A stretch of 60,268 nucleotides of DNA, filler included, from Sphacelaria rigidula (GCA_964200075.2; 8 parts of 8 records of this genome joined end to end with filler, not necessarily neighbours in it); one strand, 5' to 3'. Counted from the whole stretch's first letter, positions 1,662-43,837 are shown. Notes: a model not told the origin generated them from the sequence alone. Numbers and translations are program-made.

Positions 1662-1920
1662 TGTAGACTCTAGCCATCATTGTTACCTAAGGTTAGGGGC
1701 ATTTGTAGGTGGAGTTGCGGGTCTGATTGCCGGACTCTGTGATGGTGACCTCCATGACGAGTAGGCCCGATTTTGCCACTCTGTTGGGGAGAGGCTATGG
1801 TCTTGTTCTTCTGTACTATGCTGAGGGTTAATACATGAATACCTAAAGCTGCTGAAGTCCATGTGCCCGTGATGGAAGGAGTTCACATGGCAATCTGATC
1901 TTGAGTGACAGAAGTCTACA
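1662..1920 (+). repeat. 5' LTR of element 1
   Basis: TG...CA with terminal inverted TGTAGA/TCTACA; direct repeat of 5515-5773. Confidence 0.95.
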
Positions 1921-2402
1921 ATGAACGTTCATTAAGACCGCTGATAGTGGTAGGTCCGCTGAAAGCAGCTGACACTTCAAGATAGGGAAGTCTGCAGGCC
2001 TGATCAGTTTGCAGCAAACAAGACCAACTCAAGGAGTTGGGGAAGTAGAGCCGAGGAGTTCTGAGGCAGTGCTAGGGCGGGCTGTGGTATCGCTCGTGCC
2101 TGAGGTGCGGGCGATCGATCGACAGCTGGCGAGCCCAAGATCGTTCTAGAAAAGCGGCGAAATTACTGCCTTTTGGAGCCAGCGAGAGTTGCTTGTTCCA
2201 CGCTTGGCCAGGTACGGCCAGGAAGAGGAGTCTAAGGACTTCAAACACGTGGTGAGACCTGCGTGAGGAAGAGGCGCTGTGGCCGTTGTCGTTGTAAGGT
2301 GGTACAGCGCGTCTCGGTATAAGGAAAGAGTTGTTGTTCCTGTGAGAGGGAGGCGACTTCGTTTTTAAAAAAGGCGTGTGGAGTGCTGTACTGCTGACCG
2401 AA

Positions 2403-4231
2403 ATGTACGAGGTGCAGGAGTATGTCGCGGTGGACGGCCATGTTGTTCGTGCGCCGCAACAATATGTTGTCATCGATGGTCGCGCTGTCCGTGTACGATT
2501 TCTGGATCTGCCCTACTACGGTCGCAAGTTCTCAAGTGAAAAATCTGCTCAGTTTCTGCGGAAATATGAGGACTACCTTCGTGAGGTGCACGCAACAAAC
2601 GAGCGTCAAGCACGCGGGCACGTTGTTGAAGAGCCAGCGGTCTCTGACCTCATGCCCGCACATATCGAGAACTGTCTATGTGACACATTTTTGGATGGCG
2701 CGAATTGCTCTTTGCGCTGCGCAAGCATGCATCTTATGCATCGCCGAATGTGGTGCAATATAGTGTCAAGGTCGGCGGCGGTAGAGACAGGCACGACAGT
2801 GCACCCGCCGAACGTGCAGTAGGTGCTGCGCGTTTGAAACGACGATACAGGGCAGCTGCATGCCCTGTGAAAGCCGAGAAACATGTGTCTGCCCGAGGGG
2901 ACAGGCACGACAGTGCACCCGCCGAACGTGCAGTAGGTGCTGCGCGTTTGAAACCACGATGCAAGGCAGATGCTTGCACTGTGAAAGCCGAGAAGCATGT
3001 GTCTGCCCGAGGGGATAGGCGCGATAGTGGACCCGCTGAACGTGCAGTCAGTAGGGCGCGTCTTAAACCACGATACAGGGCAGGTATTTCCATTGTGAGG
3101 AGCGGGAAGGAGACACATAACGTGTCTGTTAAAGCGGGTATGCATGAGAGCGCGCAGGCCGACAGTTCCACGGTAAGCATTGGTTTGGATGCTGCTGGTA
3201 TTGCTGCCGGAGAGGGCGAATATGTCACGCAGCTCGAGTAGACTGCAGGCAGCTTAGCTGCCTCTGTTGCCGCTCAGGAGTGCGCTGAGTAGAAGGTGGT
3301 GGCCGAAGCGGGAATATTTGATCCAGCCGCTGCTGCCGCTGCTGCCGCTGCTGCCGCTGCTGTCGGAAGCGCGAAGCCAATTTGCTCCGATGAGCTAGCG
3401 CTGAGAGGCAAAGGTCCAGGTTGCTTGTGGCCGCCGGACCAGCGCGTGACTGGGGACACACCTTGCATGCTCACCGCTGCAAGGGGGTGTTATCTTCGTG
3501 ATGAGAGTGAGCAGAGCAAGCTTGGGGCTCGCGATGCTCAGGGTGAATCTATCTGCGCCAGTGACATGGCGAGAGATCATTTAGATGATTCGCAGGGGTG
3601 TCTGCTGGAAGGACAGGTGGATGCCGGGTTGGCGGAATTGCCGCCGGAGCAGCGCGTAGCCGTGGACACGCCTTGTATGATCGAAACAATAGGGGCGTGT
3701 GACCCGCGTGAAGCGGGTTCGCAGAGCGAGCTGCAAGCTCGTGATGCTGTTAGCGATCACAATTCTGACGACGACGACGAGCGTTGCGTGGTGTTGGGGT
3801 GGTCGTGTGCACTGCTGTTTACACGGACAGCTTTGGCGTATTTGGCGGCGATGGCGTAGGAGTCTCCACTGTTTTGCCGCGGGGTGTTTGAGGAGGATAG
3901 TGTGCCATCAGGGGGGGTTGCTGTTCGGGACTGTGTAGCTGTTCCCGTTCCGCCTCTGGTTTCCTCTGTAAAACTGACTGAAACACAGGTGTTCAGTACT
4001 GCCCAAGTATCTGTGGAGGCAGATGATCTGTCGCGTTGGTTTGGCGGTGCGAATACACCGTTGAGAGGCGTGTTGAGCTACACCATGTTGGTGCCAGGTG
4101 TAGCGAGACCGAAGGTGCAAGGTGGGAGTGTCCGAGAGGAAAAGCTGCTCTACGCTGTGCACGGGGTTGTGGTTCGAGTGCTGCTGTTTCTCTGGAGCGG
4201 GCTGGAGGACTACAAAGAAGGCATTTCGTGA
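2403..4231 (+). pseudogene. Degenerate gag-like reading frame of element 1 with low-complexity/repeat extension
   Basis: LDLPYYGRKFSSEKSAQFLRKYEDYLREVHATN aligns by eye with DLRPPQYGDRYSESAPRTFHTRYLGYKNCVEHAN of the gag at 8214. It continues through frameshift and stops into ORFs 2705-3241, 3296-3859 and 3884-4231. Confidence 0.6.
2786..3128 (+). repeat. Three tandem 114-bp (38-codon) repeats
   Basis: Units start at 2786, 2900 and 3014 and translate as DRHDSAPAERAVGAARLK...KAEKHVSARG. Confidence 0.9.
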
Positions 4232-5514
4232 GGTGTTTGCTGTTGTGGTGAGCGCCGAGTTGGGTACTGATGTTGAGGAGCAAGTGCTGTGGGGATTTGA
4301 GTGCTTGTTGAGAATGAGGAAACACATTATGACTTGTATTCGCGGATCGTTTTGAGAACGATTGCAGCTTGTCATTGTGTGGTTTGTGGTCATGTTTGCG
4401 CATGAAACATGGTTGTTGAGCGAGTACGATCGTATCGCGTGTGCAGGGTAAAACTCTGGCGTACACGTGTATATTTGGCATGTGTGTGTGGTGCTGATGT
4501 GGTTGGCACGGAAGATGCATGGTGTTTGCTGCGAGGAAGGTGGCATTGCATGTGCTGGGTGAAGTATTGACATGCATGTGCGGATTCTCATATGGTGAGT
4601 GGAAATTTGGTAGGCATGTGCGAATTTCTGCTCGAATGGTACTGATGTAAATGGTATCTGGTGACGACCTAGGGTGGGGCAGTTTTCAATATACTGCTGT
4701 ATACTAAATAAAGAGAAGCTCGTATAACCTTGTTCGCGTGGGAACACAGTCGAACCATATTTGGGCGTTTTGCACGTACTGACTGCAGGATATATGGATT
4801 GCTGCTGTTAGCGTAAAAATGAGCTGAAATAAACGAAATGCGTAGGCCCGTCGCCGTTGTTGGATTGGTATACATGACTTGGAAAGCGGTGTGAGCCATG
4901 GCTTTCCTTTGATTGTCTTTATGAAATGAAGGCAAGTTGAAGCATTGAAGCTTTGACGGCGGGGAGGCATCCGATGCATACGTTTTTTACGGGGTCGTAG
5001 AAGCAAGAGGCCAGGTGCGTTTTAGACGTGTTGGGGTGCATATTTCCTTCTCGCGTGAGGATGATGCATCATTTGGCTGTTGAACTCCGTTGCGCAGGTG
5101 TTGAACGTACAAAGAGTGAATTTTGTATGCTGAGAAGTACCTTGTCTCGGATGAGAGGGGTGATGAGTCACGAATGCTCTGGAATTTAACGTTTGCTGAC
5201 ATTTCCGGTTTCGAGCCGATGACGAGTCAAAAAACTTGTTTTGGGCGAAGATTTGAGAATCTAGCGCTAGCTATCGCTTTGTAACTCGAAGTTGTGCAAG
5301 TAGCGTGATTGCATGATCATAATGAACGATATATTGTTGGGATCTCTTGCGAGTTGTTCGGAAGTAGGGCTAGCTTGTATGAAGCTGTTGTCGAAAGCAG
5401 CGTAAGAGGTTGCTAATCTTTGCGGAAACGACGGTACTATCAGGCACCAATGGTGTCTGAGTTTGTCAAGCTCTGATGTATCTACTTGTTGGCAGTAGAG
5501 AGCTTTGGGGGTGC

Positions 5515-5773
5515 TGTAGACTCTAGCCATCATTGTTACCTAAGGTTAGGGGCATTTGTAGGTGGAGTTGCGGGTCTGATTGCCGGACTCTGTGATGGTG
5601 ACCTCCATGACGAGTAGGCCTGATTTTGCCACTCTGTTGGGGAGAGGCTATGGTCTTGTTCTCCTGTACTATGCTGAGGGTTAATACATAAATAACTAAA
5701 GCTGCTGAAGTCCATGTGCCTGTGATGGAAGGAGTTCACATGGCAATCTGATCTTGAGTGACAGAAGTCTACA
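5515..5773 (+). repeat. 3' LTR of element 1
   Basis: Direct repeat of 1662-1920, preceded by TTTGGGGGTGC and followed by the TSD CGCC. Confidence 0.95.
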
Positions 5774-5929: not shown

Positions 5930-6191
5930 TCGAGCCTCCAGAGGAATTGAACGCGTCCAGAGGGTGCGCGGCCCTCCAGAGGGGTGGGATCAAACGCCTC
6001 CAGAGGCTTGTTTTTCCTCTGGAGGGCCGCGCATCCTCCGGAGGAATTTGGAAGATGCGCGGCCCTCCAGAGCACCATCTTTTTGGTCACTCTCGAGTGA
6101 TTCAGACCTCAAAAGTCACTGGAGCATCAGATGCCCTCCAGAAGATTCGTTTATGATCGCACCTGGGAATGAAATACCCTCTAGAGGGTAT
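5930..6191. repeat. Cluster of quasi-palindromic CCTCCAGAGG motifs in both orientations
   Basis: About eight copies of CCTCCAGAG(G)/CCTCTGGAGG, several within GCGCGGCCCTCCAGAG, ending in the palindrome ATACCCTCTAGAGGGTAT. Confidence 0.65.
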
Positions 6192-7446
6192 TAGAGAGTT
6201 TCAGACCCCCCCCCCCCCAGAACTCAGGAATAAGCGAAAAACGTATGGATTCTTTACGCTTAAACGCCAGGTTTGTTTTTAATTTTTTCACCACGTAGGT
6301 GTGGACGGTGGGCAACTTTTCAGGGTTTGGTATTTTCCGTTCCGAATGCCACGTGGTCGGTGTCATGAGTTGAAGAGGTAACCGTCGCGCCGTGCTGTTC
6401 TGCGTTTGTACCCTGCGCTCGCCAATGCGGTGCTACCTGTACAGCGCGGAAGAGCATGTACCGAACCGTGCTACAATAAGTTGAATGTTTAATCCCAGGA
6501 AAAAGAGGAGTCATAGATGGGTGTTTCGGACAGCCTGTCACGGATCGGTGGTAAAGGCCTAGAGGAAAAGAGGTGCCAGTCTGTGGGCACCTGAGCACCA
6601 TCAGGCTCATGTACATTTGGGTACCATCGATTCGTACCGAGTTCGCGGTACGCATATCGTGCTCAGCAGCGAAAAGGAGGGATGCTACGGTAGGGGTGCA
6701 CAAATATTTTCTTAATTTAGAATTGTTGGGAGCCCTCTATCTCATCTAAAACACGTGTCATTAAATATGTGAGAGTACACCAGGAACCCTATCCCAATGT
6801 CCTGGGAATATCCCGAATGAATTTGCAAACGGGGATGTCCTGACCCATATTCTTGTGCATCTAGAATTTTTAGGAGCCCCTGAACCAGACAAGATTTCGC
6901 GCAAAAAGTGCAACCCTACCGTAGCATTGCTCACAGGCTTCGGGTTGTCACGCAGGTGCTTAAGCACATCGGCTGCATGCGATTCAGGCTTACTTTAGAA
7001 GAAGACCAGAGACACCTCTGATAATGCAGTCCTAGAGATGCGCAGATCCTTCTTGTATTATCGGCGAACAGGCTGATTGCTGCTGTGCTAGTTGAGATCA
7101 GTCGTAGAAGCTCTGTGAGCACATCAAGGTAGACAGACGGGTACCAAGCATGATAAGGTGTGACACACAGATACTAGTCGACTGGAAAACGACGAGTCAA
7201 TATGGAACATCCCCCTAGCCTTATCTATAAGGCTAAACAACAATACTCAAGGCCTGGAAGGGCCGGAACAAGACAAAGCCTGTGCATCATACGCCAGAAG
7301 ATAAAACGAGAAAAACCAACAAAACTACAGTGTTGGGGAAAACTCGTTGCAGATCTAATGGATAGGTAAACCCTGTAAAAACAGCCAATCATCTATGTTG
7401 AGGATGGTGCTTTTGATTGAGGATGAGAACCCGGAGGATTAAAATC

Positions 7447-7546
7447 NNNNNNNNNNNNNNNNNNNNNNNNNNNNNNNNNNNNNNNNNNNNTTAATTAATT
7501 AANNNNNNNNNNNNNNNNNNNNNNNNNNNNNNNNNNNNNNNNNNNN
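7447..7546. other. Artificial linker (N44-TTAATTAATTAA-N44). Also at 14993-15092, 22539-22638, 30085-30184, 37631-37730, 45177-45276 and 52723-52822
   Basis: Identical 100-nt spacers with six-frame stops at an exact 7,546-nt period; 8x7446+7x100=60268. Confidence 0.99.
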
Positions 7547-7652
7547 TACTCCTCGAACTGTGGCGATGTCAAAATCGATGGGAAAGTCGATTGCGTCGGG
7601 TCTGACTTTGAATCTGAAACTACGTTCTGAATCTCACGAGTGTAGTGTTAAG

Positions 7653-7904
7653 TGTGACGAAAATACGCCGTTACGTTGAGTTGGTAGTGATGATATGGAT
7701 AATGACCGTAGGTAGTGATGGCCTGGATAATGACCGGGGACACTAGGTTGATGCGCTGGCGTGTCTAGGTGGGTGGGTGCCTTGGAAGATCACTCCTGGA
7801 AAATGAAAATGTTGTCAAGGCTGACAACTGAAACTGAGGCCAGTAAGACTGGGGAGTCCCTCAACAGCTGTGATTCAACAGTGCTTCTACTGGCTGGTGT
7901 CACA
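7653..7904 (+). repeat. 5' LTR of Gypsy element 2
   Basis: Direct repeat of 13300-13547; TG...CA. Confidence 0.95.
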
Positions 7905-8213
7905 ATGTCGATATTAGTGCTAGTGCTAGTATTAGTACTGCTAGAAATCTGCTGAGAAAGATTTCGGCGGAGTGAGTCTGGCAGCTGGGGACAACCTGAC
8001 ATCACGGACTCATGACGAGGGTTCAAGTTAGTGGTGGCTGCAGAAAGGCGGCTGGCCTGTGATTGATCAAGACTGAAGACTTGCTGAAGCTGCGTGCAGC
8101 GGGAGTTTGGAGGCTCCTACGACTGTGTGGTGCGGCGACGAAGCAAGGAAAGTGCAATTCGCGAAGGTCCGCTGGCCTGCAGAGGTGGCAGGTAGCCGGT
8201 TGCAGTTACAGTT

Positions 8214-9113
8214 GTGGCTACCGGCTCACGAGGTACGTCCACCGTGTCACCCGTGGTCATGCGGGAGGACTTGCGACCTCCCCAATACGGGGACAGGTAC
8301 TCAGAGAGTGCACCTCGTACTTTTCACACGAGGTATTTGGGATACAAGAATTGTGTGGAGCACGCTAATGCAGGAGGGGCCGTGCGGTATCAGGTGGTGA
8401 CAATGGCTCAACAAGTACCGACTCATGTACAGAGAGCGTTAGCTCCTTCGGAACATAACGAGAGCACCATCACCTCGCCGCAATTGGTTGCGGCGATCAA
8501 AAAGCATGCTGGGCATGCGGCGGGCGCCGAGGTAGATCTGACCCAAGCGTCCGCGGCCGTGGCGAAAGCTGTCGCAATGCATTCTCGGGGGAAAACGATG
8601 TTGGAGCGTGTGGAGCCCATCTTGGCCAATTTGGAGAAGTATTTCACGGAATATCCGAACGTAAAACTAGTATATCGTCCCCCCGATGGTGAGTTCATTC
8701 CCGGCCCGGCAGCAGTAATCACTAAGGCTTTGGTGAAGGGGTTGGCACCGGAAAATATCAAGCAAGCCGTGCTTGTCAAGCTGCAGCACCAAATAGATTG
8801 GAAGGACGACCCGTACTTGGTGATGAGCACCACTGTCGTGGCCGAGGCCAACGAGTGGCGGAAAATAGAGGTGTTCGGCCAGTCGTCCACCTCTTCGCCG
8901 AACTCTTTGCGCAACCATGGCTCGAAATCGGCTTGTCGCGCCGCGAGTATTACTTGCCACCGCTGTGGCCAGGTCGGTCAATACGCGCGCGATTGCCCAA
9001 CGTCTTCCGGTGGAGAGTCTGGGCAGTCTAGTGCCGCGCGCCATCAGCATCGTCAGTACAAGGCCAAAATACGAGATAATCGTGGTGGTGGCGGCAGATC
9101 TTCCGGCGATTGA
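8214..9113 (+). CDS. gag: Gypsy Gag with degenerate CCHC zinc knuckle
   Basis: 299-aa ORF downstream of the 5' LTR containing CHRCGQVGQYARDC (knuckle His replaced by Gln). Confidence 0.8.
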   Translation: MATGSRGTSTVSPVVMREDLRPPQYGDRYSESAPRTFHTRYLGYKNCVEHANAGGAVRYQVVTMAQQVPTHVQRALAPSEHNESTITSPQLVAAIKKHAGHAAGAEVDLTQASAAVAKAVAMHSRGKTMLERVEPILANLEKYFTEYPNVKLVYRPPDGEFIPGPAAVITKALVKGLAPENIKQAVLVKLQHQIDWKDDPYLVMSTTVVAEANEWRKIEVFGQSSTSSPNSLRNHGSKSACRAASITCHRCGQVGQYARDCPTSSGGESGQSSAARHQHRQYKAKIRDNRGGGGRSSGD

Positions 9114-9563
9114 GGGTCGTAGGCGAGCCCTCAGTAGCAGCAGCAGCAGCAGCAGCAGCAGCGGCGGCGGCGTCATCATGGGCCTGGCTCTGGGTCCGGC
9201 GCCGCCGTAGGTGCTGCTGCTCCGCAACGGGCGGTGCAGGTGGGCTCGACCTCTACAGAGTCGAACACTGCCCCAGCGCCGGTGGTGGCGCCGGCGGTGA
9301 CACCGGTAGCAGCGCTAGGCGCGACGCCTGTTGACGCACTGGTCGGAGGTTCGCCAAATTCTTGGTTTGCTGGATGATGGGCGTACCCGCCGGCGGTGCC
9401 GTTTGAACCTGCCGGGGCGTCTTCGCCTGCGCAGCTTGCGCCGCCGTGGCGTCAAGTAGGATTAGCGGCGCATAGGTCAACAGAAGAAGTTCCCGTAGAG
9501 CTTGCCGACAGATATACTCGGGCGGAGTTATGACTTCCGAATCAACGGCAGCGTGGAGTCATT

Positions 9564-10942
9564 GTGGTTCGGTCTGTGTTGGATTCTGGCGCCCATTTCA
9601 CTAGTCTGCTGGTTCAGATGAGATGCTGGAGCGACAACTCCCAGGTGTGCCGCTGCGCATCCTGTTTTCGCTCGGGGCGCGGCAGGCAGTCACTGCGTGA
9701 GGTCAGCATGTTTCAGTCACGGAGCGTACCGTTCCGTTGCAGCTAGCCTTCAAGACTGCTTGGGCGCTGGCGCCGTTGCCTCCGATCTCGTTTGCGGTTA
9801 TGCCAGGGTCGGATGACCTTGTTCTTCTGGGGCTGCCGACGCTACAGGATCTAGGAGTCGACTCGTATGAGCGGTTGAAGGACTCCATCAAGACGCGGAT
9901 GTCTCCACCTGGTCCGCATGTGGGGACGCCCATCTTTTGGGGCAGTCGTCGCGTGAGCTTGTCGGTGGATGCTTTTCAGGAAGCTGGAGGGCAGGTGATC
10001 GAGGAGCGGGATGCGGCGGTGGAACACTTAGTAGAGCGCGGCCCGGATATGTTTATGGACCCGGCGGAAGAGGCGTCCGCTCGGAAGGTCGCGCTGGAGG
10101 AGAGCGTGACGGATGCTGTGGCGAAAGGCCTCAGCGTCCCCAAAGCGGAACGCCTGCGCGGTATCTTGCATCGGCGCGTCAACGCGTTTCGTCGTCCGCT
10201 GCGGGGTGATCCCCCTGCGCGCGTGGAGTCTATGCGTATTCACCTGAATCCTGGGGCATCCGGGTGAAGGCAAAGCCGCGGCGGTACGATCCGGTGAAGT
10301 CGAGCTGGTTGGCGTCGTGCGTGGTGGCTCTTTTGGCGCTTGGGTTGGTAGTCCGGAACATCCAAGTGGTGTGATCAAGTCCGGCGATGGCGGTTCCCGA
10401 GAAAGACTCGTTTCGCCTGGTAAGCGACTACAAGGCTGTAAATGATGAGGTTGAGAAGTCGCCGGGTGTGATGCCCAATCAAGAGTCGGACATGCGTGAT
10501 CTCTTGAGTGCTCGTTTTTTTGGCAAGTTGGACCTCCTCCAAGGTTATCGGCAGATGCCGTTGGCGGAAGAGGCGCAGGAGATTACCATAATCACGACCC
10601 CGTTAGGCTTGTTTACACCGAAGCGAGTACCGCAAGGCGTGTTGAATGCCACGGCATATTTTCAAGGTATCCTGACAGAGCTGCTCGTCAGCTTGAAATG
10701 CAAGATATGGGTGGATGATGTTTTTTTTCGCGGATACGGAAGACAAACTTTTAGACACGCTTAATGCTACCCTGGCCCGTTTAGAGAACGTTGGTTTGTT
10801 TGCGGCGGCGCACAAATGCACTCTCTTCGCGAGTGAACTCGTATGGTGTGGGGAAGTGTACTGACACGGACGCGTATCTCATGACCCTGTCAGATTTCAA
10901 GGCTCGTCTGACATACGGCGCCCGGAGACGGCCGCAGAACTC
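9564..10942 (+). pseudogene. pol: Gypsy pol: aspartic protease and reverse transcriptase, frameshifted
   Basis: Protease motif VLDSGAHFTS. RT motifs FRLVSDYKAVN, FGKLDLLQGYRQMPL, RVPQGVLNATAYFQ and KIWVDDV. Split over several frames. Confidence 0.92.
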
Positions 10943-13225
10943 ATGCGATTCCTGCAGGCCGCGAATTGGCTGCGTACCTCATTGCCGCGTATGGCAGAAA
11001 CCGTAGCTCCCTTGCGTGTTTTCCCCGGAAACCTCATGGCTGGTGCTGCGAGGCGGACGAATCGTGTTGCTAAAAACCGCGCTATCCCGCCTGCATCTTG
11101 GACGGAGGGTAGCTTGCAGGCGAGAGCGGCAGCGAAGGATCTGGTGGTTCACGCCGTGACGCTGTTCCATCCTCGTCCTGATCGTCAGGTGCTAATGTTT
11201 CCGGATGCACCTGAGTGTCATTGGGGTAGTTTTGTCACGCAGGTACTTACAGCGGAAATGCAACGACGCCTGCCAGTTGAGGATATGACGCATGGATCGC
11301 TGGCTTTCCTCAGTGGTAATTTGAGGGGTTCGCGGTTGCGTTGGGCCACAATTGATAGGGAAGGTTTTGCTATCGTAAGCACTTTTCGTCGTTTGGAGCA
11401 TTTTTTGTGGGATAGCGTGCACATTTTCACGGATCACCGGAATCTCGTGTATATTTTCAACCCGGAAGCGTGCGTTACGTCTGTGTCGAAAGCATTGGCA
11501 CAACGTTTGGAGGGTTGGAAAGCTGTTCTTGGCCAGTGCCGGTACAAGATTTGTCATATTTCGGATGAGCGTAACGCGTGGGGTGACTTGCTGTCGTGCT
11601 GGGTAAATATTCCTACTATGCCTACGCGCGCTGTGGCTGTGTATGGTCCGTGTGAACCTGATGACTCGATGCCGTCCAAATCCGTTGTCCGCCAAGCGCA
11701 ACGAGAAGATCTTGGGGCCGAAGATGCGGATGTGCAATCTTTCGAGTCGGACGTTGGTATTACTATCTTGGACAATGAAGGTCTGTTTCGTGTGCATGTG
11801 CGTGGCCGAAACGTTTTGTGGATTCCAAGTTCTGACAAGCAGTTGCAGGTATGTCTGATGATTTGCGCGCACATGCGCAACGCCGGGCATCGTGATGTGG
11901 CTGCGACGCTCGTGCGCTTGCATACGTTGTGTGTCTGGCAGGGGATAGAAACTCATGTGCGCGAATGCCTTCGCCAGCGTTTTCACTGTGCTGACTCGAG
12001 GGCGGGCGATGTTTTTCCCCACCCGCTCGGCGAAACGGTCCATGGGACCGAGCCGAATGAAGTCGTTCATTTTGACTTCTCGTACGTGGGCGAGAGTGGC
12101 CCGCTAGCTTCCCAAGGTTTGTCGGAGGATGCTGGGTTTCGATACATTTTGGTAATCATAGATGATTTGAACAACTTTGTGGCTCTAGAACCAGTAGCAG
12201 TGCGTACTGCTGAATCGACCGCTGCATCTTTGCTGAATTGGTGCAAAACTTTGGGGATGCCGCGTGTGTGGGTGAACGATACCGCCACGCATTTCAAGAA
12301 TGCGATCTTGGCCCGATTGCGAGAGGCTTTGCGCGTTGATGACCAGTTTGCGGTAGCGTATTCTCCGGGGTCTAACGGTACGTGCGAACGCATCGTAAAG
12401 GAAGTAGTTCGTGCTCTTCGCTCTATTCTTCTCGAGCAGCGTAGAGGGGGTTTCGAGTGGGTGGACGTGTTGCCGGCGGTGCAATGGGCGCTTAATACAG
12501 CGTATCGTCGTCGTTACGATAGTACGCCGTACCACGTGATGTTTGGTCGTGCCCCTCGGACGTCTTTCTCGGTGCTGCCATCTTCGTCGGCGGGAAAATG
12601 GAAGTGTGATGTTTTGGACGACGCTCAAAACAAGAGTGCATTGCAAGGAGTCTTGGACTTGCAAGAACGTCACCACGTTCAAGTGCAAGAACGTGTTGCC
12701 GCTGAACGTGCGCGTAGACGTGAGGGATCCTTGTCGGGGCTGGAATTGCCGAATTTTGAGGTAGGCGACTATGTCCTGTATGCACGCGTGCGTCGTCCGG
12801 GTGCTACGCCCAAGTTGATGATGAATTGGACTAGTCCATGGAGAGTGGTCGGTGCTCACCACCCACACGTGTTTGAGATTCAGAACATTTTTTCGAGTCG
12901 TGTTCAGACCGCCCACATAGCTTGTTTGCGTTTTTATGCAGACTCGCAGCTTAATTTTACGGCTGACGTTAAGGACGTGTTCCAGCATGCTTTCAATCAT
13001 GGGCAATTTCAGATGGCTGGTATGGTCCGAGTGGTAGAAGCAGATGATCGTTCGTTGATCGTGTTGGCCGACTGTGTTGGTTTCGGAGTTAACGAGCGTA
13101 CGTGGGAGCTATTCCAATATATTTTTGAGGCCGCTCCAGAATTACTTACGAAAGGCTTGCGTAAATTGCGCGTGACTCGTGCCGTTGCTGCTCGCATTAC
13201 GAGTGAGTTTGGTATTCAATTGTGA
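10943..13225 (+). CDS. pol: Gypsy pol C-terminal part: RNase H, integrase and chromodomain-like tail
   Basis: RNase H motifs MFPDA..CHWG, WATIDREGFAIV and IFTDHRNL. Integrase HHCC remnant H...GH and core VVHFDF, DTATHFKN, SNGTCER. Tail LIVLADCVGFGVNERTWE is chromodomain-like. Confidence 0.92.
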   Translation: MRFLQAANWLRTSLPRMAETVAPLRVFPGNLMAGAARRTNRVAKNRAIPPASWTEGSLQARAAAKDLVVHAVTLFHPRPDRQVLMFPDAPECHWGSFVTQVLTAEMQRRLPVEDMTHGSLAFLSGNLRGSRLRWATIDREGFAIVSTFRRLEHFLWDSVHIFTDHRNLVYIFNPEACVTSVSKALAQRLEGWKAVLGQCRYKICHISDERNAWGDLLSCWVNIPTMPTRAVAVYGPCEPDDSMPSKSVVRQAQREDLGAEDADVQSFESDVGITILDNEGLFRVHVRGRNVLWIPSSDKQLQVCLMICAHMRNAGHRDVAATLVRLHTLCVWQGIETHVRECLRQRFHCADSRAGDVFPHPLGETVHGTEPNEVVHFDFSYVGESGPLASQGLSEDAGFRYILVIIDDLNNFVALEPVAVRTAESTAASLLNWCKTLGMPRVWVNDTATHFKNAILARLREALRVDDQFAVAYSPGSNGTCERIVKEVVRALRSILLEQRRGGFEWVDVLPAVQWALNTAYRRRYDSTPYHVMFGRAPRTSFSVLPSSSAGKWKCDVLDDAQNKSALQGVLDLQERHHVQVQERVAAERARRREGSLSGLELPNFEVGDYVLYARVRRPGATPKLMMNWTSPWRVVGAHHPHVFEIQNIFSSRVQTAHIACLRFYADSQLNFTADVKDVFQHAFNHGQFQMAGMVRVVEADDRSLIVLADCVGFGVNERTWELFQYIFEAAPELLTKGLRKLRVTRAVAARITSEFGIQL

Positions 13226-13299
13226 CTTACTCATCGTTTTGGCGTTTTCTATGTGTCAAGCTTGTTGATCGACTTTCGTGCAACGCGCTTTGGGGGTGC

Positions 13300-13547
13300 T
13301 GTGACGAGAATACGCCGTTACGTTGAGTTAGTAGTGATGATATGGATAATGACCGTTGGTAGTGATGACCTGGATAATGACCGGGGACACTGAGTTGATG
13401 CGCTGGCGTGTCTAGGTGGGTGCCTTGGAAGGTCACTCCTGGATAATGAGAATGTTATCAAGGCTGACAGTTGAAACTGACGCCAGTGAGACTGGGGAGT
13501 CCCTCAACAGCAGTGATCCAACAGTGCTTCCACTGGCTGGCGTCACA
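13300..13547 (+). repeat. 3' LTR of Gypsy element 2
   Basis: Direct repeat of 7653-7904, preceded by TTTGGGGGTGC. Confidence 0.95.
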
Positions 13548-14300
13548 AGGGTTTGGCATCGTCTAATTTCCACTCATGATACGTGGGAAAGGCTCAGGGA
13601 GCCTCGTGACGATTTCCCTTATATCTGCTGTAGAAAAACTCAGATCATCCTCAAACTTAGCAGTACCGTAGGAACTGATTCCCTAAAGGGAAGGATTGTG
13701 TTCTTGGCACAAGTTCAGAGTTTCTTCGTTCTGTACCGGCTTCCGGGGGTCCCAGTACAAAGACCCCCGGAGGGCAGTACAGAATGACAAAAAAACAAAA
13801 CAAAATCATGCGTCCCGGGATAGCCCAAGGAACACATGAGCAAAGTTTGGTGGAAAAACTCGAAAGTCTCATTCAATTTTCCTGTCTTGACGTAAAATTC
13901 ATCCAAAAAAGATGTTTTCATACTAAAACCAAGTAGTTGGGAGTTTGCACGTTTTAAGCTCACATCCTCGCACAAACGCTTGAACCTTTACTCAGTTCTA
14001 AGGAGTTAGACGCTGAAACTTTACACAAGTGTGGTATGAATCATTACGTACGCTTCGATCAACGAGGTTTTTTTAATTCTTGGATGTTTTACCGTTTCAC
14101 GGCGGTCCGACTGGATCGAAGTTTCCTCGAAAAAACTTAGACCCCGGAAAAACGGTGAAAAAAGTAAAAAAGTAAAAAAAATCAACTCGACCCAGAAAAA
14201 TTGCGTGATCACCCGTAAAAAATCTGTGCGGACTTTCAGTGTCGAACTCTTTACAACGGCGTGAAGTTTTGCTGATGAGTGTTTTTTGGGTATTTTCCTC
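13548..14300. mobile_element. Non-coding repeat family with internal direct/inverted modules (putative non-autonomous DNA transposon)
   Basis: Homologous to 33190-33487 plus 34842-35650 (e.g. tgtagaaaaactcagatc, taccggcttccggg, caaagtttggtgga, ggagttaga). Confidence 0.75.
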
Positions 14301-15879: not shown

Positions 15880-16345
15880 TGTTGCAATTTTAGACAGGAC
15901 AGTCTATGTTCTTTGTGTGTGATTGAAATTGCCGCTAAACGATACTGTACAGCATAACCGGCACGACTTGAATGTTATTTGTTACGGTTCAGGAGAAACT
16001 GTAAACCATGTATGTGTCGTTTCACTGTACCTTTTTCATGGTGATATAGGGTACGTATTTAACATCTTTTGGTTTACGTACAGCATTGCTTTTTGTCCAG
16101 AGAGTGGAAAGTATTGAGGCTCGTTCTCGCTCGCCCCTCGGTTCTCACTCTCTCCAGCAACCCACTTTTGCTTCCACAGCTCTCTCTTGCAAAAGAGGCT
16201 GTTTGATAGTTTAGGCCAGAAGCGCCGAACTACACTATCTTGATTTTATTTCACTGGCTCCTCGCAAGTAGCTTTACCGCTATAGTGCAAGCCTCTGTTT
16301 ACCTGTCCAGTGAGACAGTGCTATGCCAGCGAATAATGTCCAACA
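15880..16345 (+). repeat. 5' LTR of Copia element
   Basis: Direct repeat of 21951-22416 with roughly two dozen substitutions. Confidence 0.95.
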
Positions 16346-16486
16346 AGTTTTGAGCCTTCGATTCGTGACCACATAGCTCAACAGGCTATCAGCCTCGGTT
16401 CGCGACCACACAGACCGACAGGTGCCTTCGATTCGCGACCACCTAGGTCTTCAGGTCATCAGCCTTTGAGTCAAGACTACATCGGT
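16341..16486 (+). repeat. Four degenerate ~37-bp tandem units, each LTR terminus (CAACA) + PBS-like motif
   Basis: caacaagttttgagccttcgattcgtgaccac / caacaggctatcagcctcggttcgcgaccac / cgacaggtgccttcgattcgcgaccac / cttcaggtcatcagcctttgagtcaagactac. Confidence 0.8.
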
Positions 16487-16612
16487 CAGCACGAGCGAGG
16501 AGGTGTCATATCAAGGTCGCCACAGCAGCGACATTCAAGAGTCCAAGAATCCTTATCTTTCCAATAGATCTGCAGGTGTGAAGAGAATAGTTTTATTAGT
16601 AACGCGAGGCAG

Positions 16613-19600
16613 ATGAATATGTCGGGAGAGCCATCTGTAACTCAGCTCATCAAGAGCATCAACAAGTTCGACGGTATAAAGTTCGTCGAGTGGATGCGCT
16701 CCACGCGCGCTATCATTTCTTTTACTCATCCGGGGATTGCGGATACCCTTAACGGGGTCGAACGCCCCGCGGAATTAAAAGAAGATTTTTCAGAGGTAGA
16801 TCTTCCACAACCAGCTGCCACAAGAACTACCCCTGCTAAAACTCGTTCTCAAACCACCCGCCAGCAGTTGTCCGTTCGACCGCATTTCTCATCGGTGGAA
16901 GCAACCGCTGGGGACGAGACGATTGCAGCGGTGGGTGGGACTGGACCTACCGGAGAAGACCATTTGTTTTTACGAGAATCTCGTTCTCCAAGCGTGGTGT
17001 CACATGAAAGGCGGGTTTCTCACACGCGTGAGATAGGAATTTGGGACCGATGCAATCAACAATTGTTCCACGTCTTGTATCTGTCTACAACTGGTCCTGC
17101 AGCGAGTTATTTGTTGCGTTTCCAGCCGAAGGGTTCAGAGGGACCAAACGGCGAACGTGCATGGGAGGCTTTGATTTCCAAGCACCAAAATTATTCGAAG
17201 CAGAGAATCAGGATCTTGATGAGAGAACTTAACAGCGTCACTATTTCACCGGGGCGAGACCCTGATACTTTCTTGAGCAAAGCGTATCAGCTTCGGGACG
17301 AACTGGACAACGTTGGCGAGGCCATTTCCGAAGAAAGGCTGACTGACAGAGTGACCGAAGGTTTAACAAGCGAGTATGATCTACCGAGTACAATGCGGAG
17401 CGTGATTCAGATCGCAGTATTCAGAGCATCGAAACAACAATGCGAATATGTATGCTAATCGCATGGCGCGGAGATATATCTCCGGGAAATCGCATGCGCG
17501 ATTCATCACTGCTGGTGACATCACTGTCAAAATCTTTGAATCAACCCCAGAAATTCCGTGGAAACTGCTACACCGGCGGGAGACCAGGACATCAGGCAAA
17601 AGACTGTCGCTCCCAACTGCAGTCAAATAATGGGAGCAGGCCTGTAAAATGGTGCAGTTTCCATCACACTGACAAGCATGACTATACCGAGTGTAGATCT
17701 CAACAGAACCGCAGGAATGCAGCCGACAACGCTGGAAACAACAACAATAATCATCATCGCAGAAATCCCCGCCATCAAAATAACAACCGTGACAACGGCA
17801 GCAACAACAGTAGGAGCTACCACAACAGCAACATCGGCAGCAACAACTCCAACGGACATCAACGCCAAGCCAACACAGCCGTCGCCGATCCAGCTACTAC
17901 AGCCGTACCATCGAACAACAACGGCCTGGAAACTTCTTCATCAACAGCTGCGACAGTGATAGATACATGCTCACCACCAAACGGTATGGGATTTACTTTT
18001 CTTTCTGGTTCACATGTCACTGATACACCCGATCCAATTTATTTTCAGTTGACAGTGGATAGCGGCAGCACTGGGCATTTTTTGGATCATCAGTTACTAC
18101 CCGATATCGAACGTGAAATGGTCGAGCTGGTCACACTCGATCCACCGATGACTATTTTAACAATGGGACGCCATCTACTACATGGTACAGCAAAATGAGT
18201 TTTGAACACCGTGGTCACTGACTCTGAGGGGTACCAACGTTCTGTATGGCTCCCAGCCGTAATTGTCCCAGGTTTGGGGAAGCATCTGTTCTCCCCTGTG
18301 CAAGCTCTTGCTGAGGGGGCTTCGACTATATTTTCTCACGAGTCCCATATCGACCTCGGAAAGTTTAAAGTGCCAATCAACAGTGACAACAACGGAGCGT
18401 GACAGTACATCAGCGTGAGAGTTTCTTGGAAACCGGGTATTATTAATAACAGCTCAGCATTTACAGCTTCAATTATATCAGGAGAATCTATGGGCATAGG
18501 GTCAGTCATTGTTGCAGAAGCCATTCACCACGACATGCCGAAAAGTTCAGCAGCCATGTCTGCCACAGCGGGAGCAGAACCGACAGCTTTGACTACCACG
18601 ACAGGAGCAGACATTTGGCATAGGCGACTTGGGCATCCTACGGAGCAGGTCATGCGCCGTCTACTGAATACTCCTGAATCAGGTGTGAACTTTGAGGGTT
18701 CACTGCCACCTCGTGTAACGTGCAAGCTTAATAAAAGTGTACAGCAGGAGCACCCAAAGGCCGTGGACTCCACGAACATTTCGGAACGACTGCAATTGGT
18801 CAGCACTGACCTCACAGGGCCGATTACGCCTATGGCGCAGGGCGGCTACCGCTACATGGCAAAATTTACGGATCACTTCTCGCGCTTCAAGGTAGTCTAC
18901 TTCATCAAAACGAAGGATGAGACCCTAACTACGCTCTGCAGGTTCATCCAAGATCTGGCTATTCCTTTAGGACTCCATGTACACCGTCTGCGGTCAGACC
19001 GTGGGGGTGAATACATCGCGTACTATTTTAAGAAGTACTGCAAGACTACGGGCATCCGCCAAGAATTCACCAGTCCATATACTCCTCAGCAGAATGGCAT
19101 CAGTGAAAGAGACGGGCGGAGCATCTTGAACGTTACTCGTTGTCTCCTGAATGAAGCGAATTTGCCGAAATTTCTTCGGGGAGAAATTGCTGCAACTGTG
19201 GTCATTTTAATCAATCGCCTACCGCACACGAGCATCGGCGGCGATACACCATTTTTCCGAATGTTTCTCAAGCAACCGAAGCTATCATCCCTGCGGACAA
19301 TCGGCTCGAGGGCGTTTGTGCACAGGGAACGTCATCACAGTAAGTTAGAAGAAAAGGCTTGGGAAGGAGTGCTAGTAGGGTATGATTCCGATAGTCCATC
19401 GTACCGCATTTACAACCGCTACTCGGGAAATATACCCAGCTCCAGAAACGTCGCTTTCATCGAACAAGTAACAGGAGCTCCTTGCAGTGATGAAGATTTT
19501 CGACTTTGGATATCCAGGAACCCGACGTATCTGCAGTTGATCAGGAACAACACGACGACATCAACAACTTCAACATGAATATTTACGATGGTTATAGCTC

Positions 19601-21393
19601 AGCTAGAGGACAACTCATCGACTACAGGGCCGCCTATCGCCCAAAGGAGGTTGCGTTCAGCCGGTGGTCCCAATCATCATCCTTCTGGACCAGTTAACAA
19701 ACGGCAAGCCAGGGAGCCAAAGCGACCAGCTTTCATGTCTTCTGCGGGTCAACATGCTGCAGCAACATTGGAATGGTATGTCAGTACATACGTACTGTTG
19801 GAGTTGAACAGGTGGCACCAACCGCGTCAATTACCGTACCCACCAACTATCGACAGGCATCGAGCTCACCATACTCGAAGAAGTGGAAAGCAGCCATGCT
19901 GGACGAACTTCAAAGTATCAAGAATCATGATGTAGCCGATATCATCCCGGCCAGCTCTATTCCCAGCAACAACAACATCATCGGTACAAGGTGAGTCTTT
20001 AAGGTCAAAGCCGACGTGCGTTTTAAAGCCCGGTTGGTGGTTCAAGGTTGGTCTCAGAGGCATGGGCTCGACTGCGGGAGTACTTTCGCTCCAGTTTGCA
20101 GGTTGGAAAGTCAGCGATTGTTACGGGCAATTGCTACTGCGAAAAATTGGCCTATTTGAGCCCTCGACGTACAAAGTGCTTTCTTGAACGGCAAGCTACA
20201 GGAAACAGTATTCTGTAGACAATCGCCAGGCTTCGAGACGTTCGACCCAGCGACAGGAGGACCACGAGTGATGCGTCTTAAGCGCGCTCTACGGACTGCG
20301 TCAGAGCCCAAACGTGTGGAACGTTACAATGGATACGGAGTTACGGGAAATGGGCTGTTCAGCCACAGCAAGGGACCTACACGAAAGGATCCCATGAGGG
20401 ATATGTGATGCTTACTCTGTATGTAGATGATGTCTTGATGACAGGACCGTCAATAAGTATACTGCAACAGGTTCAGGATGCACTGAAGTCAAGATTCTCC
20501 ATCTCCGAGCTAGGGCCAGTTTTTCTTATTCTTGGTAAAGAGGTCATCAGGGATGAAGCGCGAGGAACTCTCAAGTTGTCACAGCATAGGTAGGAAGAAT
20601 CAATGCTCAAGAAATTCGACATGGAGTCATCCAATCCAGTTCACACACCGGGGACACCAACATAACTCATCGACGACGCGCCCGAAGATACCTTCCCGGA
20701 ACCGGCAGAGAAAACCAATCACCAAGCGATGGTTGGGAGTCTCATCTTCCTCGCACAGAGCACACGATTTGACATCGCATTTAGTGTCTCTCAGGTAGCA
20801 CGTCACATGAGCAGCTCGAGTCACCAAAACTCAGTAGCAGTTAAACGGATATTTCGGTACCTGAAGGGAAAACCCGATCTTCCGCTAACGTACTCAACCT
20901 CCGATAAGAATCTGCTTTAAAACGGATTTTGTGATGCTAGCTATGGTAATGCCGGACTTCAGGGGAAAATGCGATCAACAGCGGGGACTTTTTTTTTTCT
21001 ATCTAACGGGCTAGTTCATCTCACTTCGAGCTTACAACGTATAACAGCCACTTCAACGACGGAAGCCGAGTTAATTGCCCTTTCAAAATGCGGCAAATTC
21101 GGAACGTATTTCTCCCCAATCTGATACGAAAGCTTGGATGGTCATCTATTATGCCCGCGACTATCTACTCGGATTCACAAGGCGCACTTCATCTGTCTTC
21201 AAACGCCAACTTCAGCACCAGCTCGAAACACCTGGCGATACGATTCTTTAATTTAAAATATATTATTCGAGCCGGACAAGTAAGGATACACTATGTACGA
21301 TCTTTGGAACAATTAGCGGATCGTCTCACCAAAAGCTGTGATAGAATCGTACATCAGAGACTGCTGAAGGTCATAACCGAATTTGGGAGATAA
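16613..21393 (+). pseudogene. Copia gag-pol polyprotein with multiple frameshifts and stops
   Basis: UBN2-like gag, knuckle CYTGGRPGHQAKDC, protease LTVDSGSTGHF, IWHRRLGH, integrase STDLTGP/RSDRGGEY/PQQNGISER, RT LYVDDVL and RNase H SKHLAIRFF...QLADRLTK. Confidence 0.95.
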
Positions 21394-21425
21394 CGGATAC
21401 TAATCTGGCAGGATATTTTCTTCAG

Positions 21426-21592
21426 CATCATGGTCAACGCTCAACTTCGATCATCATCGTCAACGCTCAACCACGATCATCATCGTCAACGTTCAACTTC
21501 GATCACCGTCGTCAACGCTCAACTTCGATCATCATCGTTAACGCTAAACTTCGATCATCATCGTTAACGCTAAACTTCGATCATCATCGTCA
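21426..21592 (+). repeat. 26-bp minisatellite (~6.4 copies) in Copia 3' UTR
   Basis: Unit CATCATCGTCAACGCTCAACTTCGAT. Confidence 0.92.
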
Positions 21593-21950
21593 CCGGAGTT
21601 GGAGGAACTTGATTTTGTTTGTTGTTTCGGTTAAAAAATGTTGGCATCTGTAAGTTATCGTTGATTGCTACATCGCCATATGATGACCAATTCGCGGTTT
21701 GATGTTACCGCACAATTGTTTTTGTTTGCTTATTTATTTTATAGCTCACGAAAATCTGATGCACATGCAAATACATGCGCATGCGAGTGGAGATTTGTAA
21801 CAGTGACTAGCTTCTTTTCTCAATTGGTGTTGGTTAAGTCGTTTTTCGACACAGTACAGATACATGAGTTGTACAACAGTACGAGTGCGTATCTCGACGA
21901 TTTAAGGTACACCATCTTTCTTTGATAGCGACATGTCAATCACGGGGGAG

Positions 21951-22416
21951 TGTTGCAATTTTAGACAGGACAGTCTATGTTCTTTGTGTGTGATTGAAAT
22001 CGCCGCTAAACGATACTGTACAGCATAACCGGCACGACTTGAATGTTATTTGTTACGGTTCAGGTGAAACTGTAAACCATGTATGTGTCGTTTCACTGTA
22101 CCTTTTTCATGGTAATATAGGGTACGTATTTAACATCTTTTGGTTCACGTACAGCTTTACGTTTCGTCCAGAGAGTGGAAAGTATTGAGATTCGCTCTCG
22201 CTCGCCCCGCGCTTCTCACGCTCCCCAGCAACCCAGTTTTGCTTCCGCAGCTCTCTCTCGCAAAAGAGGCTGTTTGATAGTTTAGGCCAGAAGCGCCGAA
22301 CTACACTATCTTGATTTTATTTCACTGGCTCCTCGCAAGTAGCTTTACCGCTATAATGCAAGCCTCTGCTTCACTGTCCAGTGAGACAGTGCTATGCCAG
22401 CGAATAATTTCCAACA
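21951..22416 (+). repeat. 3' LTR of Copia element
   Basis: Preceded by PPT, followed by TSD CGTGA. Confidence 0.95.
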
Positions 22417-30564: not shown

Positions 30565-30930
30565 GTGTTGTGTTGTGTGTGTTGTCATCCCATCTATTCT
30601 GGGCGCTGGTCAACACCTTTCGGTATATGTGGGCGCACCAGCCATGGTCATACAGGAGGAAGGTCAACACAGGAGCTTTTCATTTTTCATTTGTTTCTAG
30701 TACCCCACCGTCCTTCTGCGGTGCATGCCTTCATTTTTTATTGCGAGAGGGGCTTAGCAGTCCCTTTCCCTCGTCAACCGTTAGGTCGAATTTTGTGTAC
30801 CCACGACATTTTCGCTCTCCACTGTTGGACATTGTGTGAGAGAAAATCCCAGATCGCTCCAAGAATTGAACCCACGACCAAACTGTCAGAGGGTTTCGAG
30901 GTTACCAACTAAGCCACCGGGGCGACCGGC
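30565..30930 (-). mobile_element. tRNA-derived SINE family 1, copy A
   Basis: Head GCCGGTCGCCCCGGTGGCTTAGTTGG (A box)...GGTTCAATTC (B box); tail AGATGGGATGAC(AAC/AC)n. Four homologous copies in the window. Confidence 0.85.
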
Positions 30931-36625: not shown

Positions 36626-36973
36626 GTGTGTGGATGTGTTGTCGTCCCATCTATTCTGGACGCCGGGCTACACCTTTCGGTATACGTGGGCGCACCAGCC
36701 GAGGTCTCATAGGAGGAAGGTTAACACATTTTTTTCTTTTCATGCCCCATCTCCCTTCTGCGGCGCTTGCCTTTCCTTTTTACCACGAGAGGGGTTCAGC
36801 AGTCCCCTTCCCTCGTGGACCGTTACGTCGAATTTGGTGTACACCCGACATGGATGCTCTCCATTGTTGGGCATGGTGTGAGAAAGAAATTCCAGATCGC
36901 TCCGAGAAATGAACCCACGACCCAACCGTCGGTAGGTTTCGAGGGTACCGACTGAGCCGCCGGGGCGACCGGC
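36626..36973 (-). mobile_element. tRNA-derived SINE family 1, copy B
   Basis: Homologous to 30565-30930 with A/B-box head. Confidence 0.85.
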
Positions 36974-43478: not shown

Positions 43479-43837
43479 GCCGATCGCCCCGGTGGCTCAG
43501 CTGGTAACCTTGAAACCCTCTGACGGTTGGGTCGTGGATTCGAATCCTGGGGCGATCTGGGATTTTTTTCTCACAAAACGCCCAACAGCGGAGAGTGACA
43601 ATGTTGTGGGTACGCACAATTCGACTTCACGGTCGACGAGGAGGGAAAGGGACTGCTAAACCCCTCTCGCGATGAAACATAGGGCAAGCACCGCAGACGG
43701 AATGTGGCGTACCGAAACAGAAGGAGAACCGAAAATTTCCTGTCTTGGCCTTCCTCCTGTGTGACTCCGGCTGGTGCGCCCACATATACCATGAGGTGTA
43801 GGCTGGCGTCCAGGGTAGATGGGACGACAATACACAC
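43479..43837 (+). mobile_element. tRNA-derived SINE family 1, copy C
   Basis: A box TGGCTCAGCTGG, B box GATTCGAATCC, tail AGATGGGACGACAATACACAC. Confidence 0.88.

Follow-up and report, generated by a model that had tools for sequence, protein, structure and literature searches.

The stretch of DNA analyzed here (hereafter "the window") comprises 60,268 bases from Sphacelaria rigidula (GCA_964200075.2), made up of eight 7,446-nt pieces separated by 100-nt linkers (44 N, TTAATTAATTAA, 44 N). Three of the pieces harbor complete long terminal repeat (LTR) elements: element 1 (1662-5773), element 2 (7653-13547), and a Copia element (15880-22416). Elements 1 and 2 lie on different pieces, and they thus need not be genomic neighbors. 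Our subject is a short palindrome, AATGTCGATATT, that straddles the border between the 5' LTR of element 2 and its internal region, i.e., the slot usually occupied by a primer-binding site. The features of the two elements that bear on this palindrome are as follows.

7653..7904, + strand: element 2, 5' LTR, 252 nt, TGTGAC...GTCACA
7904..7915, + strand: element 2, palindrome AATGTCGATATT, five Watson-Crick pairs and one G:T
8196..9113, + strand: element 2, gag-like open reading frame (ORF) with a weak zinc knuckle (zf-CCHC, 18.7 bits, under the cut-off of 20.8)
9429..13225, + strand: element 2, pol, encoding reverse transcriptase (RT), ribonuclease H (RNase H), integrase, and a degenerate chromodomain-like tail
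13288..13299, + strand: element 2, polypurine-tract motif CTTTGGGGGTGC, directly 5' of the 3' LTR
13300..13547, + strand: element 2, 3' LTR, 248 nt
1662..1920, + strand: element 1, 5' LTR, 259 nt, TGTAGAC...GTCTACA, with CGCC directly before it
1920..1933, + strand: element 1, palindrome AATGAACGTTCATT, a perfect 14-mer; base 1920 is the final A of the 5' LTR
5503..5514, + strand: element 1, polypurine-tract motif CTTTGGGGGTGC, identical to that of element 2 and directly 5' of the TGT of the 3' LTR
5515..5773, + strand: element 1, 3' LTR, with CGCC directly after it
7447-7546, then every 7,546 nt: linkers

Element 2 is a decayed copy of a Ty3/gypsy element. Its domains occur in the order RVT_1, RT_RNaseH, rve, which is the Gypsy order. 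Alignment to P0001, an intact relative with 80% identity, takes its pol successively through frames 3, 2, 1, and 2, which entails at least three frameshifts; because of these broken frames and the 9% divergence between its LTRs (91.3% identity over 252 columns), we regard the copy as decayed. Its flanks (TTAAG at 7648-7652 and AGGGT at 13548-13552) show no target-site duplication, an absence that could reflect either decay or a recombination event joining two copies. Among named relatives, the best is one of Scytosiphon promiscuus (78% identity, covering 58% of the query); element 2 is a member of a brown-alga-type Gypsy lineage. An earlier interpretation of this DNA, made from its sequence alone (the sequence-only reading), had placed both elements in a lineage of chromodomain Gypsy elements. 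For element 2, the Gypsy assignment stands, and some of its intact relatives do carry a C-terminal chromodomain (28.1 bits for P0004 against a cut-off of 25.1; P0001 reaches 20.6 bits). The chromodomain of element 2 itself is below detection: its tail has no Pfam match at E values up to 1, and it aligns to the conserved WVGF...TWE block with the W replaced by C.

Element 1 is a different case. No Pfam family was found in the four plus-strand ORFs that were scanned, and tblastn yielded no match to the gag or pol of element 2, to P0001, or to the polyprotein of a third element, L003, which is described below. Its common ground with the lineage of element 2 is the tract region only. The label "Gypsy element 1" is therefore unsupported, as the element lacks a detectable gag or pol, and it looks non-autonomous. 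It is a young copy, with LTRs that are 98.1% identical and a 4-bp target duplication (CGCC). Within it lie an orphan ORF (2346-2822; 158 codons) for which there are just two homologues, both unannotated (72% and 58% identical), three 114-nt tandem repeats (2786-3127), and a frame of about 516 codons (2684-4231) that two stops interrupt. When further family members were sought in the window by tblastn (queries: gag and pol of element 2, P0001, and the polyprotein of L003) and by blastn (queries: both LTRs), only the elements themselves were matched.

Inspection of the bases at 7904-7915 bore out the self-complementarity that had been proposed for them. Numbered from its first base, AATGTCGATATT pairs 1-12 (A:T), 2-11 (A:T), 3-10 (T:A), 4-9 (G:T), 5-8 (T:A), and 6-7 (C:G); the single G:T wobble thus involves positions 7907 and 7912. 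Base 7904 is the final A of the 5' LTR, and the remaining 11 bases of the palindrome open the internal region, so that the site is located directly at the LTR end. The corresponding palindrome of element 1, AATGAACGTTCATT, is placed in the same way, and, as had also been claimed, the LTRs of the two elements cannot be aligned: a sensitive blastn comparison of element 1 and element 2 returned a single match, of 54 nt, just 5' of the 3' LTR. The junction of the Copia element, by contrast with these two, has no comparable palindrome.

Would the same arrangement be found in a relative from outside the window? An alignment of the pol family was searched against a collection of bacterial and archaeal genomes, and five contigs encoding relatives were recovered; presumably, these are eukaryotic contaminants of metagenome-assembled genomes. 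Only one of them, L003 (JALZUV010000215.1; 7,108 nt, in a bin labeled as a bacterium), reaches a 5' LTR junction, while the other four (L001, L002, L004, and L005) stop short of it. L003 was examined after the prediction of a palindrome had already been made. Its pol is 42% identical to that of element 2, and on that similarity it is placed as a distant member of the same lineage. The contig begins with a pol C-terminus and a 3' untranslated region, after which come CTTTGGGGGGGTGC, a roughly 282-nt LTR (TGTGGCG...GACGTCACA), ATACGATCGTATT, a leader, and gag-pol in one open frame of 1,769 codons. Such a circular permutation would result if a multi-copy element had been collapsed in assembly, or if two tandem copies had an LTR in common; in the first case, the contig would approximate the family consensus. 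At its junction is AATACGATCGTATT (1509-1522), a perfect 14-mer when the final A of the LTR is counted. The palindrome therefore begins on the last A of the 5' LTR in 3/3 elements (window positions 1920 and 7904, and L003 position 1509). The position noted by the sequence-only reading for elements 1 and 2 was thus upheld, but the AATG...ATTA frame that it saw in both was not: once L003 is included, only AAT...ATT is common to the sites. We also considered an upstream ORF at this place. An ATG after the LTR opens 4 codons in element 1 and 16 codons in element 2; this candidate was rejected, as L003 has ATA there.

To gauge how often such palindromes arise by chance, their background was counted over the 59,568 bases of the window that are not N. 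Perfect palindromes of at least 14 nt have 22 centers, 16 of which fall within (TA)n runs (3.7e-4 per base); those of at least 12 nt with at most one G:T have 119 centers (2.0e-3 per base). In L003, AATACGATCGTATT is one of two such palindromes (2 centers per 7,108 nt, or 2.8e-4 per base). A start exactly on the last LTR base would accordingly be expected with a frequency of about 3.7e-4 in element 1, of 2.0e-3 in element 2, and of about 7e-7 in both elements jointly. For the three palindromes together, the joint chance of exact placement calculated from the measured background rates is about 2e-10. The palindrome at 7904-7915 is real and exceeds chance. A candidate for a fourth case, the perfect 20-nt palindrome AATACCCTCTAGAGGGTATT (6173-6192), was rejected, as no LTR end lies before it and it sits within a motif array. 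That array, at window positions 5930-6200, consists of CCCTCCAGAGG-like motifs in both orientations and ends in AATACCCTCTAGAGGGTATT.

The sole G:T pair occurs in the decayed copy (element 2, with LTRs 91% identical and at least three frameshifts), and the perfect palindromes are those of the young copy (element 1, 98% LTR identity) and of L003, with its open gag-pol frame. The wobble fits neutral decay: from the divergence of the LTRs, about 4.5% change per site can be calculated, which gives a 12-nt site a chance of about 40% of sustaining one hit.

Comparison of the three sites demonstrates that symmetry has been kept while sequence has not. When they are aligned by their frame, the outer pairs (A:T, A:T, T:A) are retained, and variation is confined to the four inner ones. 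Each of the 19 cells with a base on both sides holds a standard pair, 18 of them being Watson-Crick and the other a G:T, and 4/7 pairs have changed on both sides. When the 3' partner was slid by one to three columns, only 25-43% of the cells were paired, and no pair was changed on both sides. The observed covariation was reached by 17/500 column shuffles. Taken together, covariation and the positional test are persuasive, and they strengthen the suggestion, made before L003, an independent third element, supplied another core within AAT...ATT, that a conserved symmetry with a different core reflects selection on structure.

The polypurine tract provides a useful counterpoint. The tract CTTTGGGGG(GG)TGC is kept in all three elements, that of L003 being the CTTTGGGGGTGC motif plus two more G; the palindrome cores differ. 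A TCAAG(C/T)T box about 40 nt 5' of the tract is kept in all three as well (window 5435-5514 and 13220-13299; L003 1149-1227). Tract and box together correspond to the region around the tract that ECR-1 and ECR-2 of Ectocarpus are reported to have in common (PMC11541908; see below). With three mismatches allowed, the tract motif occurs elsewhere in the window at chance level (6 found vs. 1.55 expected, 2 exact). What proteins read is thus fixed, and the core of the palindrome is free to vary, provided that its symmetry stays.

We then considered how these sites might pair as RNA. Predicted hairpin energies for the three sites are slight (-2.2, -0.9, and -1.5 kcal/mol). The predicted gains on homodimer formation are much larger, at -14.7, -16.9, and -14.8 kcal/mol, and the fractions of 300 shuffles that did as well were 0.01, 0.00, and 0.02. 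The Copia junction, used as a control, had a homodimer gain of -3.9 kcal/mol and a shuffle fraction of 0.80. By these predicted energies, the three leaders carry what is expected of a dimer palindrome, namely a self-complementary sequence able to form an intermolecular duplex. For the two intact sites, pairing of the palindrome with the surrounding 160-260 nt is predicted with P ≤ 0.03.

Nearly all LTR retrotransposons and retroviruses borrow a host transfer RNA (tRNA) to start DNA synthesis; to our knowledge, self-priming of the Tf1 type is the only worked-out exception. Minus-strand synthesis starts at the LTR edge, and the primer must therefore bind there. A canonical tRNA primer site was ruled out at this edge: none of the three elements has a TGG in the 20 nt that follow its LTR (the first TGG of element 1 is at +27), and an uninterrupted palindrome could not serve as the complement of a tRNA stem-loop. 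Moreover, a host primer would hold the sequence of its site constant, yet the core varies; for this reason, the palindrome is not a tRNA-type site. Some Copia and Ty5-type elements are primed by a half-tRNA, i.e., by internal tRNA fragments, and the lack of conservation in the core argues against such a fragment as the primer in the present case. Nor did we find, in the three elements, a separate tRNA primer site beside the palindrome, as is present in Ty1 and retroviral leaders.

Self-priming of the Tf1 type was rejected as well, as no complement of the leader beyond chance exists in the LTR. The longest Watson-Crick run between the LTR and the first 70 nt of the leader was 7 nt in element 1, which 239/500 shuffles equaled, and element 2 and L003 had no run of 7 or more in the same interval. 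A search of each LTR for a complement of the first 30 nt of the leader did not beat chance either, and RNAduplex comparisons were no better than shuffles. Likewise, the best partner of the palindrome in cis within 150 nt on either side matched 6-8 of 12-14 positions (reached by 675-1000/1000 shuffles). A hairpin of the type described for GalEa elements was rejected because no second complementary site was found within 150 nt up- or downstream; the best downstream match covered 6-7 of 12-14 positions (978-1000/1000 shuffles). The best reading of the locus is thus a tRNA-independent self-complementary site in the primer-binding slot. The sequence-only reading had offered a tRNA-independent palindromic priming or dimerization site; the failure to find a tRNA-type or Tf1-type site agrees with its first half, and priming and dimerization themselves are roles that we infer.

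The closest precedent is the one published analogue of the design, the GalEa elements, which belong to another superfamily and kingdom. These form a Copia clade of Pezizomycotina that is described as having no primer site and as carrying 9 bp that, taken together with the last A of the 5' LTR, form a palindrome (PMC5445492). Their variants differ at paired positions, and the authors report that they found neither a complement of the Tf1 type nor a model that fit (PMC5445492). The absence of a tRNA-type site, the post-LTR palindrome that includes the final A (present without a tRNA primer site in all three of our elements), and the paired variants are points of likeness, with a 10-mer in GalEa vs. 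12-14-mers here (PMC5445492). GalEa differs in having a second 9-bp site, inverse-complementary to the first and 12-41 bp downstream of it, which pairs with it at a fixed A/A mismatch into a long hairpin (PMC5445492); no such site appears here within 150 nt. Furthermore, GalEa elements are of the Ty1/copia type (integrase before RT), in contrast to the Gypsy order of element 2, whose relatives have the same set of Gypsy domains, and the sequences are unrelated.

Among the elements listed as self-priming are Tf1, Tf2, Tj1, and others (PMC6934838). Tf1 and Tj1 self-prime, and in Tf1 an RNA duplex is reported to be cleaved by RNase H, which frees the primer (PMC4600332). Independence from tRNA, a primer that would be encoded by the element and co-evolve with its site, and a place in a Gypsy-type lineage of which some members bear a chromodomain all recall the Tf1/sushi group (PMC4600332, PMC6934838). 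The Tf1 site, however, is not palindromic and pairs with about 11 nt at the 5' end of its own mRNA, inside the LTR (PMC4600332), whereas the sole partner of the present site is the site itself. The chromodomain Gypsy lineages of Ectocarpus are reported to be unrelated to chromoviruses (PMC12477816). Two centromeric elements of Ectocarpus, ECR-1 and ECR-2, deserve mention: one is a chromodomain Gypsy element, and the other is a related LTR element from which no coding region was recovered (PMC11541908). They have in common about 64 bp that include the polypurine tract, and they have 4-bp target duplications (PMC11541908). Elements 2 and 1 mirror this pair, with 54 nt including the tract in common and a 4-bp duplication (in element 1), a likeness that is by description only (PMC11541908). 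The main texts of that paper and of the Ectocarpus repeat survey (PMC12477816) contain no mention of a primer site or palindrome. In our search of the literature, a palindromic primer slot was not described for any stramenopile or Gypsy element, and the name Conserved Hairpin Site turned up in two papers only.

Retroviral kissing-loop dimer sites are palindromic dimerization sequences located in the leader, and related arrangements are known from other systems. Ty1 has the self-complementary leader sequences PAL1 and PAL2 in its packaged RNA, which are expected to pair the genomes (PMC6844567), and mouse mammary tumor virus (MMTV) has palindromes inside its primer site (PMC8096270). In all of these, a tRNA primer site is also present, and the palindromes are 6-10 nt long and usually lie in hairpin loops; here, the palindrome is alone in the slot.

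These parallels prompt the rival explanation that we weigh most seriously: the palindrome could be only a dimer-linkage or packaging site, similar to the Ty1 PAL sequences and the retroviral dimer sites, and the true primer could be some host RNA, an internal tRNA fragment for instance, with its binding site there or next to it. We judge this to be unlikely. It is true that the dimerization of Ty1 is driven by self-complementary leader sequences (PMC6844567), that the homodimer energies favor pairing, and that our screen for tRNA was limited to the window, in which ARAGORN called 0 tRNA genes and Rfam had 0 matches. But a host primer should fix the sequence of its site in the way that the tract is fixed, and only AAT...ATT is constant; a contiguous 14-nt palindrome cannot mirror a tRNA stem-loop, and the lack of a TGG within 20 nt speaks against a host tRNA primer in all three elements. 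A pure dimer site, for its part, need not begin exactly on the last LTR base in 3/3 elements. Alternatively, the site might form a hairpin in cis that positions the reverse transcriptase beside U5 (the unique 5' region), as was proposed for the Conserved Hairpin Site of GalEa, whose palindrome is in the same place and is predicted to form a hairpin (PMC5445492). A partition-function calculation puts 64-68% of the intact sites in a local 5-bp hairpin, and a 4-bp stem (GUCU/AGAC) flanks that of element 1. The hairpins are nonetheless very weak, as the energies given above attest, and 35/200 and 146/200 shuffles of two 25-nt stretches fold as well; a contiguous palindrome would sacrifice its center as a 4-nt loop, and the second site of the GalEa hairpin was not found within 150 nt. 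As a hairpin also provides no primer, we consider this explanation quite improbable.

Palindromic sites of 12-14 bp are typical of dimeric DNA-binding proteins. The palindrome might on that account be a DNA site, at the border of LTR and leader, for a host transcription factor or repressor or for a protein of the element; indeed, mammalian host repressors target primer-site DNA (PMC10602909). A protein site should keep its bases, however, and the change of 4/7 pairs on both sides with symmetry kept is the signature of nucleic-acid pairing. This explanation, which would furthermore leave the elements with no primer site at all, strikes us as very improbable. We give the least credence, and very little of it, to chance or to shared ancestry without function. 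There are three cases only, the outer AAT...ATT could be inherited, and related sequences can beat shuffle controls without having a structure. Against this stand the joint chance of about 2e-10 for exact placement, the inner cores, which cannot be aligned as inherited sequence and are all still complementary, and the fact that the third case turned up after the prediction.

The best explanation of these data is that AATGTCGATATT is a mildly decayed copy of a self-complementary cis-element that has been under selection and that occupies the primer-binding slot in a brown-alga-type Ty3/gypsy lineage and in a non-autonomous element that shares its tract. That a self-pairing element in the primer-binding slot has been selected is, in our estimation, highly probable. 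How might it act? The palindrome would function in RNA, with the site pairing to the identical site on a second genomic RNA in a duplex of 12-14 bp that would link the two RNA copies. This duplex would adjoin the last base of U5, and a cut at its 3' edge on one RNA would leave a 3'-OH paired to the other. From there, the partner RNA could prime minus-strand DNA synthesis into U5, amounting to self-priming in trans without a tRNA. The cut would plausibly be made by the element's own RNase H, by analogy to Tf1. Under this model, the palindrome is primer and primer site in one, which leaves its core free to drift, in each family separately, through paired changes; the tract, which is read by the element's proteins, stays fixed. 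Element 1 would need only the tract in common with its helper, which fits its private core. That the sister RNA is the primer is possible, though we have our doubts. The looser combined statement, that an RNA self-pairing element occupies the primer slot and probably participates in priming, we favor by a small measure. More tentative than any of these is a general conjecture: brown-alga Gypsy elements would begin reverse transcription in a way not previously described, with the two packaged RNAs paired through a palindrome next to U5 and one of them, cut at the duplex edge, priming the other; dimer linkage, primer, and site would be one element of 12-14 nt, and the arrangement would have arisen independently in GalEa Copia elements.

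Several considerations weigh against the interpretation that we prefer. The evidence is thin, consisting of three elements from one lineage and being entirely computational, and the shuffle control, which had three sequences to draw on and a structure read from those same sequences, is weak by itself. For element 2, base-pairing between the right half of the palindrome and the end of U5 is predicted with P of about 0.43. An 8-nt block downstream of the palindrome, AGGTCCGC, common to element 1 (+30; 1950-1957) and L003 (+18; 1526-1533), is not accounted for by the model. The primer-site palindromes of MMTV proved to be dispensable for dimerization (PMC8096270). The mechanism also faces three problems: a primer acting in trans would carry a long 5' tail unless it were cut on both sides, nothing obvious stops the synthesis of plus-strand strong-stop DNA, and a palindrome in the primer site allows DNA ends to pair with one another or to fold back.

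As to the block itself, element 2 carries AGTACTGC where AGGTCCGC aligns. We rejected the block as a primer site: it lies downstream, and the edge at which the minus strand starts abuts the palindrome. A MAFFT alignment of the three leaders, in which L003 was misaligned, revealed no common structure beyond this block.

Other features of the window may be noted. The Copia element has 466-nt LTRs that are about 95% identical, a 5-bp duplication (CGTGA), and gag and then integrase, with the remainder of pol after them. Where its 5' LTR ends, the sequence that follows (AGTTTTGAGCC...) is no palindrome and lacks a TGG; its leader contains a 42-nt repeat spaced by 70 nt, and its 3' part has seven 26-nt tandem repeats. 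At 26218-26802, two inverted 202-nt arms that are 98% identical enclose about 180 nt. Adjoining these arms are G-runs followed by TGC, recalling the polypurine motif. Two facing copies of ACAGTGGTGCACCATT, which contains the palindrome TGGTGCACCA, are present as well; this structure may be another kind of retroelement end. Finally, four tRNA-like copies are present (43479-43553 and 46038-46112, and, in reverse, 30844-30930 and 36887-36973), which are 80-86% alike within pairs and are situated inside longer repeats. None was called a tRNA by ARAGORN or Rfam, and the four look like the heads of tRNA-derived short interspersed elements (SINEs).

What does this site mean for the biology of these elements? 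By the covariation seen here, the site is its own partner. The occurrence of the same design in an unrelated superfamily and kingdom points to a recurring solution rather than an oddity. Priming without a primer site becomes a testable question, for which Ectocarpus, a brown alga kept in the laboratory and having recently active elements of related lineages, is suitable. In addition, such elements will be scored as defective by any annotation tool for which a tRNA primer site is obligatory. If the model is true, it would also explain how non-autonomous partners keep a private primer site and have only the tract in common with their helper.

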